Source: Chlorobiota bacterium
GTDB taxonomy: Bacteria; Bacteroidota; Ignavibacteria; Tepidaquicellales; OLB5
Assembly (NCBI GenBank): GCA_022616535.1
Contig: JAKEEM010000009.1
Span: 11,353-75,352, forward strand
Direction: 5' to 3'
DNA length: 64,000 nt
The notes beneath the pieces were generated by a model. That model saw only the letters and a program-made list of their open reading frames with translations. It was not told the origin of the DNA and did not search any database. This document shows, piece after piece, positions 25,373 to 48,666 of the stretch (within the stretch, counting starts at the first letter, position 1; each line of letters opens with the position of its first letter). The translations under genes and the position numbers were made by a program.

Positions 25373-25849
25373 TCAGTCAGGTATCGGCATTCCCATTTGC
25401 TCGTAAATCTCCTCAATCTGCCGTTTGTTTTCCATCGCTTCCTTATTGCCCGGGTCAAGCTCCAGCACCCGTCGGTATCTCTTTAAAGCCGGTCTGTATT
25501 TTTTCTTGGGCGAAAGATTTGCCTCAAACATCAGGTAATTAGCTGCAGTAAGCTGTTTCTGAATGCATGTTTTCTTGTCACCTTCGGACTTAGTCTTCTC
25601 ATACTTTGCATCTGCTTCATCCGCCTCTTTTGTTAGCTCCTCCGCCTTGGAGTCACCTTTTACATCAGAATCGGTTGTACTTTGTCTAAGGTTCCTGTGG
25701 ATTGAGTCATCGGGCATCTCCTGCTGCTGAACGTTTTGCTTAGGCTTGGTCTGGTTTTCCAGCAGCTCTTTGGGAACTTCCTTTGTGCAGGAAGATATGA
25801 AAAAGGAGATTATTATTAGAATTAAAGCGGATTTTAATTTGTGAGCCAT
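25373..25849 (-). CDS. TPR-like lipoprotein, first gene of the ccm operon
   Basis: 158 aa. Lipobox FFISSC. The C-terminus has a TPR-like segment (AANYLMFEANLSPKKKYRPALKRYRRVLELDPGNKEA). Confidence 0.55.
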   Translation of the reverse strand: MAHKLKSALILIIISFFISSCTKEVPKELLENQTKPKQNVQQQEMPDDSIHRNLRQSTTDSDVKGDSKAEELTKEADEADAKYEKTKSEGDKKTCIQKQLTAANYLMFEANLSPKKKYRPALKRYRRVLELDPGNKEAMENKRQIEEIYEQMGMPIPD

Positions 25850-25894
25850 AACTTATGAATGAAAGTGTACATTGTAAAAATTCTTACTTCTATA

Positions 25895-35341: not shown

Positions 35342-35366
35342 AATTGTAAATAATTCATCCATCAGC

Positions 35367-36077
35367 ATGAAAACATACTTTGAGACTCCAACCTGCGACG
35401 AGTGCAAATCAAGGTTCAACAATGTGTTTTGTTCACTGACCGGCGAGCAGGTAACGGAAATGTCGCTGGATAAAAACTGCAGCATGTATAAAAAAGGGCA
35501 GTTAATATTCTACGAGGGGAACAGACCATCCGGTGTTTATTGCATAAACAAAGGAAAAATTAAAATATTCCAAACAGGCGAAGAAGGCAAAGAGCAGATT
35601 CTCCGCCTTGCAAAAGAAGGCGATGTGCTGGGCTACAGAGCTATGATAAGCGGTGACCCGTATTCAGCTTCTGCTGCCGTTATGGAAGATGCGGTTGTGT
35701 GCTTTATTCCCAAAAAGACCTTTTTTGGCTTTTTGCAGGGTAATTCCGAGCTTTCATCAAATATGATGATGCTACTTTCCCATGATTTAAAGGAAGCCGA
35801 AAGCAGAATAACGGGACTCGCCCAAAAGCCCGTCCGCGAAAGGATGGCGGAAACCATCCTAATGCTGCAGGAATTTTACGGATTAAACGGCAATGATGAT
35901 ACTATAAATGCGTCATTATCGCGTGAGGATATTGCTAATATCGTTGGCACAGCCACAGAAACGGCAATCAGGATTTTGTCCGATTTTAAAAACGAAAAGC
36001 TAATTGAACTTCAGGGCAAAAGGATTAAAATCCTGAACCATTCGGGTCTTGTAAAAGCGGCGCATATATTCGAATAA
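35367..36077 (+). CDS. Crp/Fnr family transcriptional regulator with an N-terminal Cys cluster (FNR-like)
   Basis: 236 aa. N-terminal C10-x2-C13-x8-C22, then a cNMP-binding-like beta-roll, then the C-terminal HTH REDIANIVGTATETAIRILSDF (E-x3-R, as in the FNR recognition helix). Confidence 0.8.
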   Translation: MKTYFETPTCDECKSRFNNVFCSLTGEQVTEMSLDKNCSMYKKGQLIFYEGNRPSGVYCINKGKIKIFQTGEEGKEQILRLAKEGDVLGYRAMISGDPYSASAAVMEDAVVCFIPKKTFFGFLQGNSELSSNMMMLLSHDLKEAESRITGLAQKPVRERMAETILMLQEFYGLNGNDDTINASLSREDIANIVGTATETAIRILSDFKNEKLIELQGKRIKILNHSGLVKAAHIFE

Positions 36078-36216: not shown

Positions 36217-36885
36217 ATGGCAAAATACACTGGTTTAGAAGAAATAATCAAAAATTATAAAGATTTAATCCCCTTAGTCTTTCACAAAAACGAGCTATTG
36301 TTTCAGGAGGGCGAGTCTGCAAAAGGTATTTACTGCATAGAATCCGGAAACGTTAAGCTCAGCAAAAAAGAAGCAAATGACGGCGATAGAATCGTTCACC
36401 TTGCGGCAAAAGGAGAAATTCTTGGGCTGCACGCCGTTGTTAACAGGCACAATTACACAAATTCAGCAGTTGCCTTAACAAAAACTCATAGCTGTTTTAT
36501 TACCGCTGATGATTTCCTGAAGCTGATTGAAGATAACAACACTTACAAGCTGCTTGTGATGAAAAGCCTATGCTCGAGAATCGACACTATGGAAAATCAC
36601 ATAAACAGAATAAGCGATAAGCCGAGCGATGAAAGATTCGCCGATACCTTGCTTATGCTTGTTAACAAATACGGGCTGAACAGGTCAAGGGAACTGAATA
36701 TTCACCTTAGCCTTGACGAGATTGCAAGCTTTACCTGCACTTCCAAGAGCTATATGAAAAAAATAATCTCAGATTTTTCTCAAAGGGGATTAATCTCGTT
36801 CTCAGGGGGAATTATAAATATTCGCAATCTTCCTCAGCTTGAAAATATTGTTAATTTAAGCTCAAAAGCCGCCTTACCAAGTTAA
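36217..36885 (+). CDS. Crp/Fnr family transcriptional regulator (no N-terminal Cys cluster)
   Basis: 222 aa with a cNMP-binding-like domain (GESAKGIYCIESGNVKL) and a C-terminal HTH. Confidence 0.75.
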   Translation: MAKYTGLEEIIKNYKDLIPLVFHKNELLFQEGESAKGIYCIESGNVKLSKKEANDGDRIVHLAAKGEILGLHAVVNRHNYTNSAVALTKTHSCFITADDFLKLIEDNNTYKLLVMKSLCSRIDTMENHINRISDKPSDERFADTLLMLVNKYGLNRSRELNIHLSLDEIASFTCTSKSYMKKIISDFSQRGLISFSGGIINIRNLPQLENIVNLSSKAALPS

Positions 36886-39114: not shown

Positions 39115-39933
39115 ATGAAAGCCCCGATTATTGTAGATACAGTGCCTTCAAGCTTTACCGATGAACTGAAGAAGCCGTACCGTAAGTTCTTAAGCAAAGG
39201 CTTGGTCTACGCAATACTGCTTCATATTTTTGTAATTGCTGCTTACGGCGGAGCTAATTATTACAGCAATTACCTGAAAGAGCAGGAATCTAAAAATATG
39301 CAGCAAAGGATAATTAATGTAACCCTGACCGATTTGGAACCGCCGCCCTCGATGACTGAAGAAGAAGAACCCCCTGTAAAAGTGGAGGAGCTTACTACTC
39401 CTACAAAGGACCTCGAGGCAATGACCCCGGAACCGGTTGCAAGAGAAAAGGCGGACGTTCAAACAATAAAAACACAGCATGAGCTTGAGGAAATTAAGAC
39501 TCCTGTTTCAACGATCGGTGATACAGGTAAATTCACATTTTCCGGCCCGATTAAGATTGAAGAAAAAAAGATTGAGGAAAAAGTGACCAAGCATGAGAAT
39601 ATAGAGCAGGAAAAAACTGTTTACCAGCAGTTTGAAGTTGAAAAACCGCCGGAGGCGGTAAATTTAGAGCAGATTAAGGCTTCGATTGTTTACCCATCGC
39701 TTGCACAGGAAACCGGAATCGAAGGCAGGGTAACTGTAAAGGTTCTCGTCGGTCCGGATGGAGAAGTGATAAAGGTCGGCCCTATTACAGGACCCGAGGT
39801 TTTTTATGACGAAGTTCGAAGCAAGGTAACTATGCTTCAGTTCACGCCGGGACTGCAAAACGGCAAGCCGGTCAAAGTTTGGGTTTCAGTGCCCTTTAAT
39901 TCCGGCTTAAGAATTAGCCAAAAGCTCTTATAA
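39115..39933 (+). CDS. energy transducer TonB-like protein
   Basis: 272 aa with an N-terminal TM segment, a Pro/Glu-rich linker (EPPPSMTEEEEPPVKVEE) and a TonB C-terminal domain (YPSLAQETGIEGRVTVKVLVGPDGEV...GKPVKVWVSVPF). Confidence 0.8.
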   Translation: MKAPIIVDTVPSSFTDELKKPYRKFLSKGLVYAILLHIFVIAAYGGANYYSNYLKEQESKNMQQRIINVTLTDLEPPPSMTEEEEPPVKVEELTTPTKDLEAMTPEPVAREKADVQTIKTQHELEEIKTPVSTIGDTGKFTFSGPIKIEEKKIEEKVTKHENIEQEKTVYQQFEVEKPPEAVNLEQIKASIVYPSLAQETGIEGRVTVKVLVGPDGEVIKVGPITGPEVFYDEVRSKVTMLQFTPGLQNGKPVKVWVSVPFNSGLRISQKLL

Positions 39934-39939
39934 ATTAAA

Positions 39940-39971
39940 GCCGGACTTTTCAATAAAGTTCGGCTTTTTTA
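39940..39971 (+). terminator. intrinsic terminator after tonB
   Basis: GCCGGACTT-loop-AAGTTCGGC followed by TTTTTT. Confidence 0.7.
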
Positions 39972-40038
39972 ATAACGCCTGCATATAAAAACTTGTCGGG
40001 GCGAGTCGCCGACTCGTACCGACAATGGTGTTGGAAAT

Positions 40039-40126
40039 AAAAAAAGGCGGGTTTTTACCCGCCTGTGCTTGAATGGCTCAATGCCACCTTCATCCATCCT
40101 TACCGAGGAGCTGGCCTCAATAAGTA
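40039..40126 (-). ncRNA. candidate ~90-nt small RNA (orphan promoter-to-terminator unit)
   Basis: The minus-strand hairpin GGCGGGTAAAAACCCGCC plus U7 (40063-40039) has no upstream minus-strand CDS. A minus-strand TATCTTTG -7 motif (40139-40132) and an FNR-type box lie just upstream. No convincing ORF. Confidence 0.3.
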
Positions 40127-40131
40127 TGCTA

Positions 40132-40175
40132 CAAAGATACTACAGCAATTAGCTCCCTGAAATGATTTTTATCAA
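40132..40175 (-). promoter_or_regulatory. FNR/CRP-type box (TTGATAAAAATCAT on the minus strand) plus -7 motif (TATCTTTG)
   Basis: Box at 40162-40175, a 22-nt gap, and the -7 motif at 40139-40132. A second, weaker box ATGATTTTTATCC lies at 40184-40196. Confidence 0.45.
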
Positions 40176-40240
40176 AATAAAATATGATTTTTATCCAGAT
40201 ACGTTATTAATTTTTAGAAAGATTAAAATCAGCCGGTGAA

Positions 40241-40283
40241 TTGACAATTGTCATTGCCAGGCTCGAATTATAAGCTATTTTTG
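40241..40283 (+). promoter_or_regulatory. FNR/CRP-type box (TTGACAATTGTCAT) plus -7 motif (TATTTTTG) for the ferredoxin gene
   Basis: Box at 40241-40254, a 21-nt gap, the -7 motif at 40276-40283, and the ATG at 40378 (about 90-nt leader with an 8-bp hairpin next to the SD). Confidence 0.5.
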
Positions 40284-40377
40284 TATTGGATAATTCCACA
40301 TAGTTCCGATTTTAGCTTAGGACCTAGACTGATTCTATTAGAAGTTATTCTAAAGTAATAGAACAGGAGGTTAAATA

Positions 40378-40725
40378 ATGGCACTTAAAATTTCGAATGA
40401 TTGCATGAATTGCGGCGTCTGCGAAATCGAGTGCCCTTACAACGCAATCTATCCCGCAGGGTTGAACTGGAGAAAAATTAAGCGTAAATACCTCAGCGTG
40501 TGCGAAGACAGGTCTGTTACCGATGATTTTTATTCAGGCGTTCACTATTATATAGTTCCCGATATGTGCACTGAGTGCAAAGGTATTTCTGAAACGCCAA
40601 AATGTGTTATGGTTTGCCCGCTTTCCGGAATTGAGAAGGATACAAAGCTTTGGGAAAGCGAAGAACACCTTTATTCTAAGAAGCAGTATCTCGATACACT
40701 TCATCCGTGGAGATATTGGAGCTGA
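40378..40725 (+). CDS. 4Fe-4S dicluster ferredoxin-like protein
   Basis: 115 aa. Has CMNCGVCEIECP and CTECKG...CVMVCP cluster motifs, with a GGAGG RBS upstream. Confidence 0.8.
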   Translation: MALKISNDCMNCGVCEIECPYNAIYPAGLNWRKIKRKYLSVCEDRSVTDDFYSGVHYYIVPDMCTECKGISETPKCVMVCPLSGIEKDTKLWESEEHLYSKKQYLDTLHPWRYWS

Positions 40726-40749: not shown

Positions 40750-40956
40750 ATGAAAACCAGGGTGAGAAAAATAAGTCCTGTAAAAGCTAACCTTAATAAA
40801 GTCCATAGAGCCAGAGTTCCTGAAGAGCTGTTTGATGAGTATGAGCTTGATATAAAAATTAAGCAGGCAAAATCAACTAGAAGAGATGAAAGAACCGATA
40901 TTATTTTTTCCAGTATACCGGCTCAGGCACACGAGGTTTTTGAGCGAATGGTCTGA
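40750..40956 (+). CDS. hypothetical small basic protein
   Basis: 68-aa ORF directly after the ferredoxin gene. No family recognised. Confidence 0.35.
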   Translation: MKTRVRKISPVKANLNKVHRARVPEELFDEYELDIKIKQAKSTRRDERTDIIFSSIPAQAHEVFERMV

Positions 40957-43539: not shown

Positions 43540-45266
43540 TTATTCAGCTTTCTTTCTTCTGTTATATACTGTTACTACAAGCTGGAATGTTACTAAAAAC
43601 AGCAGAGTTATCAAAAATCCTAGACCGATTTTTGAAGGTCCTGCAGTCGAACGCCCGCCCATATCCTTAACGCTTACGGTGCCCTTCATATAAGGATGCG
43701 GTGTGCACATATACTTGTAATCGCCTTCCTTGTTGAATGTGAACGTAAAGCTTTCAGTATGCGCAAGCAGCGGTGAAGAAAACGGCTCTGCAATGCCTTC
43801 ATACGAAGTTACGTTATGGATTCCTGCAAACTCTCCCTCCATATATGAGAATACATCTTCATTAACCCATTTGACTTTGGTTCCCTCGGCAATAACGATT
43901 GATTTCGGGTAAAAAGAATTACCAATAATTTTTACAGTTACCTCTCCTGTTTCAGGACCATAATAGGCAACGGGGTCTACATCTGGACTCCCCGGTTCGA
44001 AAGGTGAAATTACTCTTGTAACTTTGGATTTAAGGGTGTTCAATTCTTCCTGCGAGTATTTTGGCCCGTCTCCGATTACCGTTACCGGCGTCTGTGCGCT
44101 GTCGTCGCAGACAAGAAGCCCGATAGCGCCTCTGTCGGTGGGTCCTACAGCGTGATTAAGCATTAGATAAGCGCCTTCATCGGGCGGAACTCTGAATTCA
44201 ACGACCCATGAGTCCGTAGGACCCGCAAGAACACTCTGCCCGCCCGGGTAAACCATATCGGGATTACCCTGCCAGTATGCAAAATCCCAGATTATTCCCA
44301 CAATGTGAAAGGTTGCGGTTTGATTTGGACCTACGTTAAGATAATAAATCCTTACATAATCGCCGGGTTTTGCTTTAATGGGGTTTTCCACGTATCTGAA
44401 CAGCTTGCCGTTGAAAGCCGTATAGAGCGGCTTGCTTTCTATTGCATCTTTTCCGTTTGAGTAAAACTCATGCTGGTTTAAAAATATTTCAACATCCGGA
44501 GGCTTGTTTAATATGGTTTCAAGCTTATACTTCTTCTTTGGTTTTACCACAATCATTCCGTACTGACCGTAAATAACATGCATCGGTATTGCGTGTCCGC
44601 CCGGTGCGCAATGATACATATAAACTCCGGGGTAGGAGACTTTAAACAGCAAGGATTTTGATTTACCCGCTTCGATTTTTCCGAGATACTTTGACGTTTG
44701 GGTATAAGCGGCGTGAATCGACGCACCGTGCGTAACAGTTCCTTTGTTTACAATGGTAAATTCGACTATATCTCCTTCATCAAGCACAATTGTTGGTCCG
44801 GGTATTGTGCCGTTCATTACAAAACCCTTATACAATACTCCGTTGCCAATGTATACTTCGCCCTCGGAAAGCTCAACAGATACTTTTTTATCAGGCGTAA
44901 CATTTTGGGGGACGTAGCTTGTCGGCGGTATTGATAAGCTGTTATCACGGCTGATTATCTGGATAAAATCATTAGGACCTTCCTGCTGCGGAAAACCAGC
45001 TGCTTCGTTTTTAATGCCTGATGTATAGGCCGTTATCGGTAATTGCGATGGATAGCTAATACCGCTTTTGTTGTTTGTAAGGTTTGCAATCGATTTCAGC
45101 AGTTCTTCGCTTACAAGTGAATTACTTCTAGTTGTGAAAAGTTCTTCATAGAATTTAGCATTACAGTAAGGGCATGATAATAGCTCCCCTAACTAAGGAA
45201 GAAAATTAATAAGCCGGTCACAAATAGTGACGGCTTTTTGCAAAAAAGGTTTTTTAATGTTTTCAT
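43540..45266 (-). pseudogene. NirK-like copper protein fused to an amicyanin-like cupredoxin and a C-terminal TM anchor; the N-terminal signal segment is out of frame
   Basis: NirK-like T1/T2 Cu motifs (THGASIH; YMYHCAPGGHAIPMH). C-terminal YMCTPHPYMKG cupredoxin, then a hydrophobic tail. The frame is open from 45192 with no ATG/GTG before TTG 44835. MKTLKNLFCKKPSLFVTGLLIFFLS (45266-45192) lies in the adjacent frame and ends at TAG 45191-45189. Confidence 0.6.
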
Positions 45267-45313: not shown

Positions 45314-45327
45314 TTGATTGTAATCAA
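45314..45327 (-). promoter_or_regulatory. consensus FNR box TTGATTGTAATCAA
   Basis: Perfect TTGAT-N4-ATCAA, centred about 54 nt upstream of the ATG at 45266. Confidence 0.55.
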
Positions 45328-46469: not shown

Positions 46470-48666
46470 CTATTTAACCTCCTTTGGTTCTATTGTTTTT
46501 ATATCGGCAGTTATTTCGCCTTTAATGTCAGTTCCGAGTCTTTGCAGATAAGCTATTAGGGCTATTATTTCCTTATCGCTCGTAACGGGCGCTCCGTTTT
46601 TCTGCAAATCTTTGGTGATTTCATCGGCTTGTTTTGTTAAGTCGTTTAATGCCTGTGTTTCGTATCCTTCGGGATAAGGAACGCCGATTTTCCTCATTGC
46701 ATTAATCTTTGCTTCAGTGGTCGAGATGTCAAGTGACTGCTCAAACAGCCAGGTATACCTGGGCATAATTGAGCCCGGCGAAATTGATGCGGGGTCATCC
46801 ATATGCAGGTAGTGCCATACATTCGGATACTTTTTGCCTTCCCTGTGCAGGTCAGGCCCCGTTCGCTTTGAGCCCCATAAAAACGGGTGGTCGTAAACAA
46901 ACTCGCCCGCTTTGGAATATTCCCCGTACCTTTCGGTCTCGGAGCGGAACGGTCTTATCATTTGCGAATGGCAGTTATTGCATCCTTCCCTAATATAAAT
47001 ATCCCTGCCCTGCAGCTCTAAAGGCGTGTACGGCTTAACGCTCGAAATTGTCGGCACATTTGATTTCACTAAAAACGTAGGGATTAACTCTACCAGTCCC
47101 CCGATTAAAACTACAACCAATGAAACAAGCGCAAACTTAACGGGTCTTTTTTCAAGCCATCGGTGCCTTGCGCCTGCAGCTGAGCCCGGTTCAATCAATT
47201 CCCTTGCCGGTGCTTCTGCCGGCTCTTCTGCAATCAGCCTGCCCTGCGTGGAGGTTTTGTATAAGTTGTAAACACCAACAATTACCCCCGTTAAGTAGAA
47301 TGTTCCGCCGATTGAGCGGATTGCATACATCGGGATAATCTGTGTAACCGTTTCTAAAAAGTTTGGGTACTGTAATATCCCCTCGGCGGTAAACTCTTTC
47401 CACATCAATGACTGCGTTATTCCCGCCCAGTACATTGCCGAAGCATAAAATACTATGCCAAGAGTTCCTATCCAGAAATGGAAGTTAGCCAGCTTCTTTG
47501 AATAAAGGTTTGTTCCATAAATCTTAGGTACGAGCCAGTAAAGAACGCCGAATGTCAGAAAGCCATTCCACCCAAGCGCACCTACGTGAACGTGGGATAC
47601 AATCCAGTCAGTAAAATGCGCAATTGCATTAACGTTCTTAAGCGAAAGCATCGGTCCCTCAAACGTTGCCATACCGTAAGCGGTGACTGCAACAACCATA
47701 AATTTAAGTATGGGGTCTTCGCGGACTTTATCCCATGCGCCGCGGAGTGTTAAGAGCCCGTTAATCATTCCTCCCCACGAGGGAGCAATAAGCATTATAG
47801 AAAACACTGTGCCTAGCGACTGTGCCCAGTCAGGAAGCGCGGTATTATAATAAATGATGAGGACCTGCCCAGATGTAAATAAATATCAGCACCCAGAAAT
47901 GAACAATCGAAAGCTTGTATGAGTAAACGGGTCTGTTTGCCGCTTTGGGCAGATAATAATACATCAGCCCTAAAAAGGGAGTTGTTAGGAAAAACGCCAC
48001 AGCATTATGTCCATACCACCATTGAACCAGTGCGTCCTGAACTCCTGCATAAACAGAGTAGCTTTTCAAGAACGTAACGGGCATTTCAATAGAATTAACT
48101 ATGTGCAGCACGGCGACCGTTACAACGGTCGCTATGTAAAACCAGATAGCAACGTACATATGCTTTTCTCTGCGCCTAATGATAGTCCCGAACATGTTGA
48201 TAGCAAATACTACCCACACAAGGGTTATTAGAATATCAATAGGCCATTCGAGCTCAGCATACTCCTTGCTAGTGGTGATACCTAAAGGAAGTGTTAGTGC
48301 CGCACATAGAATTATAAGCTGCCATCCCCAAAAATTAATTTTGCTTAAAAGGTCGCTGAACATCCTTGCTTTACAAAGCCGTTGCAGCGAATAATAAACA
48401 CCCATAAAAATAGCATTGCCCACAAAGGCAAAAATGACGGCGTTTGTGTGAAGCGGTCTGATACGGCTGAATGTTGTGTATTGAAGATTGAAGTTCAAAG
48501 CAGGAATGTAAATCTGAAACGCAATCAATAATCCGACAAGCATTCCCACAATCCCCCAAACCATCGTTGCGATTGCAAAATCACGAACTATTTTGTTATC
48601 GTAACTAAACTTTTCCAATCCAATCGCACCGTGAACACCGGTATCCAAAGATTCCTCTTTATGCAT
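46470..48666 (-). pseudogene. ccoN: cbb3-type cytochrome c oxidase CcoN-CcoO fusion, interrupted by a frame break at ~47845-47853
   Basis: ORF 47845-48666 holds the CcoN N-terminal part and ends ...WAGPHHLL*. The +1 frame continues [28 protein letters not shown] into ORF 46470-47807 (rest of CcoN plus CcoO with CNNCHS). Both frames are open across 47848-47885. Confidence 0.8.

Follow-up and report, generated by a model that had tools for sequence, protein, structure and literature searches.

The 444-bp gap (39934-40377) between a tonB-like gene and a ferredoxin gene, given as 440 bp in the original prediction, contains on its minus strand a promoter-like sequence followed by an intrinsic terminator, and the question that it raises is what is transcribed between the two. 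The original prediction read the pair as a candidate gene of an oxygen-responsive small RNA preceded by an FNR box. We examined this reading in the window, which here means the whole 64,000-nucleotide stretch of DNA (G+C content 39%), and in homologous loci from metagenomes, and weighed it against a leader of a neighbouring gene, a protein-binding RNA, a small-protein gene and a chance arrangement of signals.

The element, its promoter and its presumed regulator

The element lies in a neighbourhood of low-oxygen genes. Besides the tonB-like and ferredoxin genes, the window holds two Crp/Fnr genes (35367-36077 and 36217-36885) and genes for Usp and hemerythrin, and its opposite strand encodes DsbD_2, FixH, FixG/CcoG, a copper protein, cbb3 oxidase subunits and a CcoI-like P-type ATPase. 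The best genome matches of the ferredoxin come from Ignavibacteria metagenome-assembled genomes and are at most 57% identical, so the source lineage is poorly sampled. The hairpin with its U7 tail stands on the minus strand at 40063-40039, exactly where it had been predicted, and a terminator scan gives it a stem of eight pairs, six of them G-C, and a loop of four. The claim that no minus-strand coding sequence lies upstream for it to terminate agrees with the ORF map. The features of the locus are as follows.

39115-39933, tonB-like gene (TonB_C), convergent to the element
40378-40725, ferredoxin gene, divergent from the element
40184..40197, minus strand, distal Crp/Fnr-type box TGGATAAAAATCAT, 22 bp upstream of the proximal box and near-identical to TTGATAAAAATCAT
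40162..40175, minus strand, proximal FNR-type box TTGATAAAAATCAT, 9/10 to TTGAT-N4-ATCAA, 22 nt before TATCTTTG
40132..40139, minus strand, -7 promoter motif TATCTTTG (TAnnTTTG, the sigma-A type of Bacteroidota and relatives)
40039..40127, minus strand, predicted small RNA transcript of ~87-89 nt, with a putative start at 40127-40125 and a 3' end in the U-run
40099..40124, minus strand, stem-loop 1, CUUAUUGAGG / CCUCGGUAAG, 10 bp, loop CCAGCU
40089..40098, minus strand, purine-rich linker GAUGGAUGAA, candidate seed
40071..40091, minus strand, stem-loop 2, GAA[GG]UGGC / GCCAUUC, loop AUUGA
40064..40070, minus strand, single-stranded tail AAGCACA just 5' of the terminator, conserved in hand alignment A10
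40063..40046, minus strand, terminator hairpin GGCGGGTAAAAACCCGCC, with T7 at 40045..40039
40039..40063, minus strand, the whole intrinsic terminator, GGCGGGU-AAAA-ACCCGCC plus U7, its stem invariant in 8/8 sequences
35367..36077, plus strand, presumed cognate regulator, a Crp/Fnr-family protein with C10-x2-C13-x8-C22 and C112

The TAnnTTTG motif and the box exactly 22 nt further upstream, on which the prediction of a promoter had been built, are both present, at 40139..40132 and 40175..40162. In Flavobacterium the TAnnTTTG box sits at -12..-5 (PMC9723704), and taking the motif of the element at the same position places the start of transcription near 40127 and the centre of the proximal box at -41.5. 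With a start at 40127, the distal box would be centred near -63.5. A centre at -41.5 is the classical class II position of FNR. The arrangement recurs in the window: the composite nTGA-N6-TCAn, 21-23 nt, TAnnTTTG occurs seven times against 0.075 expected under a first-order Markov model, with a maximum of two in 200 simulations, while the FNR box alone, with one mismatch allowed, is not enriched in the window (nine observed versus 5.4 expected). The composite sites precede the second Crp/Fnr gene, the 37007 operon that includes usp, the hemerythrin gene, the ferredoxin gene, the CcoI-like ATPase gene, an unknown gene at 25373-25849 and the RNA element itself. The original prediction had stated that four other promoters share the 22-nt spacing; as many as six others do carry the box at 21-23 nt, but the distance is exactly 22 in only two of these six.

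The presumed regulator is encoded by the first Crp/Fnr gene, about 4 kb from the element. In alignment its C112 falls opposite Cys122 of Aliivibrio FNR, and the recognition-helix ETAIR falls opposite ETISR (Ser to Ile). The four cysteines are candidate ligands of an [4Fe-4S] cluster. The N-terminal cysteines are spaced CxxC-x8-C, not CxxC-x5-C, and the NCBIfam Fnr score of 99.6 falls under the cut-off of 228. Support for reading the box as an FNR site comes from the class II geometry at -41.5, from the regulon of seven promoters and from this neighbouring cysteine-bearing Crp/Fnr protein, so that the label 'FNR-type' for box and regulator appears well founded as far as sequence can tell; the protein itself may sense oxygen.

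Conservation and structure of the predicted RNA

Ferredoxin homologues at least 62% identical to that of the window led to short metagenome contigs (the L-numbered loci), which were compared with it. The promoter-hairpin unit, which the original prediction had proposed to seek in related genomes, is conserved in five further lineages: L001-L004, L008, L092, L090/L091 and L006, the last with two copies. An nhmmer search, followed by covariance models R1 (from alignment A6) and R2 (from A9), gave further copies, and the covariance-model match of the window element spans 40125..40041 with 76.5 bits (E = 2e-14). The copies located outside the closest lineage are these.

L008, 3809..3720, element copy, covariance-model/nhmmer match
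L006, 2056..1967, element copy, covariance-model/nhmmer match
L006, 1297..1198, paralogous copy of the element
L092, 168..79, element copy divergent from a usp-ferredoxin operon
L090, 835..752, and L091, 884..801, element copies

The homologues in other lineages are all divergent from the ferredoxin gene or from a usp-ferredoxin operon. The promoter is kept with them: in each of the eight loci compared, 22-23 nt of differing spacer sequence separate the proximal box from TAnnTTTG, and the distal box is visible in the alignment at every lineage, 44-45 nt from the -7 motif. The distal box reaches at least 7/10 to the FNR consensus only in the window, L006, L092 and L090/L091, and its 5' half is degenerate in L002/L004 (GGGACAAAAATCAT) and L008 (GGTACAAAAATCAT). 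The paralog in L006 shows the 22-nt layout and a distal box, GGATAAAAATCAT, both read by eye.

Beyond these lineages the searches returned no family member. Eighty GTDB loci near ferredoxins at most 57% identical gave no homologue by nhmmer, nothing over 20.5 bits (E >= 0.1) by covariance model (L009-L088) and no analogous layout of box, promoter and terminator, and L007, with a ferredoxin of 71% identity, carries no copy of the element. Weak nhmmer and covariance-model hits in L093 and L094 fall in a repeat array, and others in L090, L091 and L092 are 3' ends of HSP20 genes with terminators; both groups were rejected. A metagenome-wide search with the DNA pattern CACAAGGCGGG-N4-8-CCCGCCTTT retrieved unrelated terminators, with no upstream box or -7 motif among the 126 matches listed, and the single hit on a viral contig was discarded as a chance match.

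The closest lineage, L001-L004, has a ferredoxin of 87% amino-acid identity and a gap that can be aligned over its entire length, so that the parts of the locus can be compared directly. Against L002, the RNA body (40064-40127) is identical at 63 of 64 positions and the box region (40162-40197) at 94%. Identity falls to 74% in the promoter spacer and -7 motif (40128-40161), to 67% between the distal box and the ferredoxin start (40198-40377) and to 42% between the tonB-like stop codon and the terminator (39934-40038); third codon positions of the ferredoxin gene are 58% identical. The RNA body is under purifying selection, being kept far better than the ferredoxin third positions, the spacer and the distal intergenic DNA. 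The body shows no synonymous changes while the ferredoxin third codon positions are 42% diverged, which points to selection on the RNA or the DNA itself. The original prediction saw no convincing ORF in the transcript, and six-frame translations of six homologues likewise contain none that is conserved on either strand.

The predicted RNA of the window folds into three hairpins with a free energy of -35.5 kcal/mol (z = -4.1; 0 of 200 shuffles as stable), and the two internal hairpins that had been proposed are both present in this minimum-free-energy fold. Folded singly, the homologues all form these hairpins (stem 1, stem 2 and terminator), and their z scores range from -2.7 to -5.0. MAFFT alone (A3 and A4) misplaced the terminator and the stems, and for this reason we used N-padded hand alignments (A6 and A10) and the model-derived A9. 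Alignment A10 holds eight sequences from six lineages, each row of which was verified as a true substring of its source. In A10, whose pair counts lean towards the proposed structure because it was hand-fitted to that structure and has only six lineages, 94.7% of cells are standard pairs versus 34-54% when partners are slid by one to three columns, and 13 of 25 pairs are changed on both sides versus 0-3 when slid. The observed covariation score was reached by none of 500 shuffles.

Covariation in the stems had been put forward as a check on the small RNA, and in this hand-fitted eight-sequence alignment stems 1 and 2 both covary. Changes on both sides are found across lineages in five of the ten pairs of stem 1 and in seven of the eight pairs of stem 2, including all six core pairs, whose variants are GAAUGG/CCAUUC, AAGCAG/CUGCUU and UUAAAC/GUUUAA. 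The terminator stem GGCGGG/CCCGCC and the CACA(A)GG before it are near-invariant; the stem never varies and is thus uninformative on structure. The tail reads CACA(A)GG in the orthologs and CCUAAGG in the L006 paralog, and the linker core is (U/A)GGA in seven of the eight aligned sequences and UGAC in L090. The sequences would allow an outer helix between UG(G) of the linker and the CACA tail; it is invariant and so unsupported, and was dropped. As a conserved sequence feature the element is real and well supported, and its function is a prediction: we infer its transcription, low-oxygen activation, action in trans and targets, and read its start, its 3' end and its oxygen response from motifs only.

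Alternative functions and candidate targets

We judge it fairly probable, from the sequence features above, that the element is an independently transcribed gene for a non-coding small RNA of ~87 nt, with a Crp/Fnr-dependent class II promoter and a function that is probably exerted in trans. It has the general marks of such a gene, namely a promoter and an intrinsic terminator of its own, no overlap with other genes, conservation above neutral and compensatory stem changes (in the hand-fitted alignment of six lineages). The small RNA reading of the original prediction gains support from the conserved unit, the two covarying stems, the lack of a conserved ORF and the lack of REP-like repetition; each computational check that had been listed as able to overturn it speaks for it. 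An FNR-type dimer would occupy the box at -41.5, probably with a second dimer at -63.5, and the bound protein would bring RNA polymerase to the -7 motif TAnnTTTG. The likely candidate for this regulator is the FNR-like protein with the cysteines, whose gene lies 4 kb from the element; it would be active at low oxygen. The transcript would start near 40127-40125, end at the GGCGGG/CCCGCC-U7 intrinsic terminator and fold into two covarying stem-loops, a purine-rich linker between them and the terminator hairpin last. Most likely it would base-pair in trans with mRNAs and supply a post-transcriptional, probably repressive arm of the low-oxygen regulon, comparable to FnrS of enterobacteria.

A different role is suggested by a conserved unknown membrane-protein gene, here called gene X, which in L006, L008 and L090/L091 lies 3' of the element and is read in the same direction; its product (158-193 aa, with a hydrophobic C-terminus and no Pfam match) is 55-66% identical between these loci. 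The element could be a cis-acting 5' leader or transcription attenuator of X, its hairpin and U-run serving as a conditional terminator and the window copy being an orphan of rearrangement, a possibility that we regard as unlikely. In L006 the start codon of X lies ~16 nt past a terminator weakened by an interrupted U-run (UUUAUUU), which leaves no room for a separate promoter, so that read-through must express X; in L090 the start codon lies ~28 nt past the terminator. In these two lineages the element may also, or instead, be a leader, and in some lineages it may do both jobs. A regulated gene directly downstream, as an attenuator would have, is present in L006 and L090 and partly in L008, but absent in the window, where the terminator is strong (8 bp, U7) and a tblastn search of the whole 64 kb detects no X. 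In L001-L004, as in the window, the place downstream is taken by the convergent tonB-like gene, and the RNA body is nevertheless 98-100% conserved between the two. In L008, X has a promoter of its own (box, 22 nt, TATCTTTG) ~100 nt past the terminator, and in L006 the paralog comes after X, with a convergent gene as its next neighbour. Because the window and L001-L004 keep the RNA without X, and the distant X homologues in L217 and L218 are without such an element, the element is not simply a leader of X.

The conserved body could also bind or sequester a protein, such as a CsrA/RsmA-type or other binder of purine-rich single-stranded RNA, through the A(A)GGA/UGGA motifs of the linker instead of by base-pairing. 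In each homologue one to three GGA motifs fall within loop 2 or the unpaired linker, as in AAGGAUGGAUG (window), AAGGAAAUGGAUGAAGGAU (L008) and GCGGAAU (L090, loop 2), and the invariant module CACAAGG-GGCGGG...CCCGCC suggests recognition of a specific sequence. The motifs are, however, only two or three and closely spaced, far fewer than in sponges of the CsrB/RsmZ type; the Rfam match to PrrB_RsmZ reaches 12 bits where the gathering score is 44 and is confined to the terminator, and no csrA was found among the proteins scanned in the window. We regard protein binding as improbable. A small-protein gene is a far more doubtful proposal still. The plus-strand frame of 31 codons (40065-40160) does keep its frame and stop position in L002, but it is broken by stops in L008, L092 and L090, and so is the minus-strand frame of 42 codons (40097-39969), which runs through the terminator; minus-strand frames differ in each lineage, and the body is without synonymous changes. 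We find it just as hard to credit that promoter and hairpin are juxtaposed by chance, or that the hairpin is a REP-like or bidirectional terminator of the tonB-like gene without a dedicated transcript. It does lie 106 nt 3' of that convergent gene, with an A run before it on the plus strand, but the tonB-like gene already has a hairpin and T-run of its own at 39939-39972, no part of the gap is better conserved than the span from promoter to hairpin, which also covaries, and the unit occurs without the tonB-like gene in L006, L008, L090 and L092. A REP-like hairpin had been named as an outcome that would speak against the small RNA; a repeat search of the 64 kb returned one covariance-model match and one GGCGGG-N6-CCCGCC, so the element is single-copy in the window, as is the adjacent palindrome.

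If the element is a trans-acting small RNA, the linker is its candidate seed, and an exploratory duplex scan set it against 49 start regions within the window. Its best partners are the box-driven unknown gene at 25373-25849, with 13 bp, including two G-U, at -18..-6, and the fnr-like gene itself, at the following site.

35354..35363, plus strand, candidate target site UUCAUCCAUC at -13..-4 of the fnr-like gene, with 10 contiguous Watson-Crick pairs to the linker

The fnr-like gene has a predicted leader of 21 nt without a Shine-Dalgarno sequence, and the only other occurrence of the 10-mer in the 64 kb is in the RNA gene. A match of equal length to a start region arises in 34 of 500 shuffles (global p ~0.07), and we therefore treat this pairing as a lead and not as evidence; none of the 49 start regions is a convincing target, the fnr leader being the best. 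The leaders of the divergent ferredoxin and usp genes show no excess complementarity to the RNA in five lineages, and the linker of each lineage gave nothing notable against the few genes on related contigs. Scanning the whole body with RNAduplex against start regions yielded long, meaningless duplexes, and CUCCUC, an anti-Shine-Dalgarno-like sequence in stem 1, was dropped as a seed because it is not conserved.

The two best matches allow a tentative extension of the small RNA reading, which we regard as possible though unlikely: negative feedback of the RNA on its own activator, in which the linker GAUGGAUGAA would pair with UUCAUCCAUC in the fnr-like mRNA and with a related site, UUUCAUUCAU, before 25373-25849, and the copies in some relatives would also be a read-through leader of X, leader and small RNA at once. 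By way of the RNA, FNR would then curb its own production and some of its regulon. If so, the fnr leaders of the L006-, L092- and L090-type genomes would be expected to be complementary to the linkers of those lineages, as CUUUUUCCAC is to GUGGAAAAAG.

Relation to known small RNAs and significance

FnrS (RF01796) is an FNR-activated, Hfq-dependent small RNA of Enterobacteriaceae, ~122 nt long, that represses mRNAs of aerobic functions by base-pairing. The element resembles it in being a stand-alone gene with an intrinsic terminator, no ORF and a place in a low-oxygen regulon, and in having an FNR site that, by sequence, is centred near -41.5 (class II) as in the FnrS promoter; the presumed logic, in which an RNA enables an activator also to repress, would be shared as well. 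It differs in length (~87 nt versus ~122 nt), has no sequence or structure homology to FnrS, uses a TAnnTTTG sigma-A promoter with two tandem boxes 22 bp apart, belongs to an uncultured Ignavibacteria-like host of the FCB group and has a purine-rich candidate seed in place of the typical C/U-rich anti-Shine-Dalgarno seed. It is not a homologue of FnrS and most likely a functional analogue. At the gathering threshold Rfam 15 finds only a tRNA in the whole window, and cmscan of 39850-40450 at E <= 10 gives seven weak, chance-level families, among which neither FnrS nor the Bacteroides families appear.

Two further RNAs offer a comparison, AniS of Neisseria, which is FNR-induced and Hfq-associated, and PaiI of Pseudomonas, which is anaerobically induced and NarXL-dependent (PMC5449619, PMC5703892). 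Like them, the element would yield a short, terminator-ended RNA under an anaerobic or low-oxygen regulator, with action in trans predicted here; unlike them, it belongs to another phylum and shares no sequence similarity, and the regulator of PaiI is a different one. Small RNAs of Bacteroidota are known from dRNA-seq as the BTnc families of Bacteroides and the small RNAs of Flavobacterium psychrophilum (PMC7366714, PMC9723704). These have the same TAnnTTTG promoter grammar at -12..-5 and short transcripts ended by terminators, but the element matches none of the Bacteroides families in Rfam and we found none of these RNAs reported with an FNR-type box. Full-text searches of the literature found no small RNA described for Ignavibacteria, nor any in Bacteroidota with a link to FNR, which, with the Rfam 15 result, fits the earlier remark that no such RNA has been described in the FCB group, as far as checked.

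FnrS and AniS explain how an activator also switches genes off as oxygen falls. To our knowledge, all characterised FNR-driven small RNAs come from Proteobacteria, almost nothing is known of the small-RNA biology of the Ignavibacteria/FCB lineage and no chaperone has been established for it. Translation signals and promoters in this lineage differ from the proteobacterial ones. The element, if our reading is true, would be the first candidate for an FNR-driven small RNA from the Ignavibacteria/FCB lineage, set in a compact predicted regulon of seven promoters around cbb3 oxidase accessory, ferredoxin, hemerythrin and Usp genes. Its covariance model can now be used for the annotation of metagenomes, and the pairing with the fnr leader, if real, would make a simple and directly testable autoregulatory circuit.

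Promoters and repeats around the ferredoxin gene

The 444-bp gap between the tonB-like and ferredoxin genes holds several elements besides the predicted small RNA, and a short open reading frame follows the ferredoxin gene:

39992-40027: nested G+C-rich palindrome TTGTCGG GGCGAGTCGCCGACTCG TACCGACAA, between the terminators of the tonB-like gene and the small RNA
40241-40283 (+): ferredoxin promoter, with its own box TTGACAATTGTCAT, then 21 nt, then TATTTTTG
40332-40364 (+): inverted repeat TTCTATTAGAA ... TAATAGAA in the ferredoxin 5' leader, just ahead of the AGGAGG ribosome-binding site
40750-40956 (+): 68-aa ORF, 3' of the ferredoxin gene

With the separate ferredoxin box included, the gap contains three Crp/Fnr-type boxes for two divergent promoters. 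The closest relatives (L002 type) lack the palindrome, of which the window has a single copy; it may therefore be a small insertion. The leader inverted repeat is kept in the L002-type relatives and may act as a translational or stability element. The 68-aa ORF has neither a Pfam nor an NCBIfam match, and a small ORF occupies the same post-ferredoxin position in L001, L005, L090 and L091 (68 aa), L006 (66 aa) and L092 (59 aa). Its position and length make it a candidate for a conserved small partner protein.

Linker complementarity to start regions

The purine-rich linker joining the stems of the small RNA is complementary to two sites in the window, each just 5' of a start codon:

35354-35363 (+): fnr-like gene (presumed regulator), 10 bp, perfect
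25855-25867 (-): box-driven unknown gene, 13 bp including 2 G-U pairs

Neither gene has a Shine-Dalgarno sequence, and the global p for linker complementarity to start regions is ~0.07.

The cbb3 oxidase and copper-protein regions

46470-48666 (-): CcoN, a cbb3 oxidase subunit, apparently in two ORFs with a split COX1 match
45314-45327: perfect TTGAT-N4-ATCAA, upstream of the copper-protein (nirK-like) region

CcoN appears split: the ORF at 47845-48666 spans COX1 positions 1-262, and in the ORF at 46470-47807 a segment matching COX1 positions 277-435 is fused to FixO/CcoO. Possible causes of this arrangement are a frameshift, an error in the assembly and a true split-and-fusion. The perfect box is the only one in the window, and no TAnnTTTG lies 21-23 nt after it; the nearby stretch 44836-45265 looks like a disrupted reading frame.

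Small RNA copies and gene X in relatives

At the ferredoxin-associated locus L007 (3800-3870), upstream of the gene for a 71%-identical ferredoxin, two boxes are retained 22 bp apart, followed by no recognisable -7 motif and no small RNA; the site may be a decayed copy. Separately, nhmmer matches in L093:450-1000 were rejected as spurious, since they arise from a repeat array whose units, of roughly 60-120 nt, have many C-runs and G-runs (CATCCCCCCTTTATTAAAGGGGGGATTAAGGGGGGTT).

L006 carries a diverged second copy of the small RNA, and a conserved unknown gene, gene X, lies directly 3' of the small RNA in several relatives:

L006:1198-1297 (-), promoter to about 1375: small RNA paralog, directly downstream of gene X
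L006:1374-1955 (-): gene X
L008:3027-3587 (-): gene X
L090:246-722 (-): gene X

The L006 paralog has its own promoter, in which tandem boxes are followed after 22 nt by TATATTTG, and compensatory changes separate its stems from those of the first L006 copy. The gene X protein family comprises at least 60 cluster representatives, has a hydrophobic C-terminal half and gave zero matches against Pfam. Gene X is absent from the window and adjoins the small RNA in three lineages (L006, L008 and L090).
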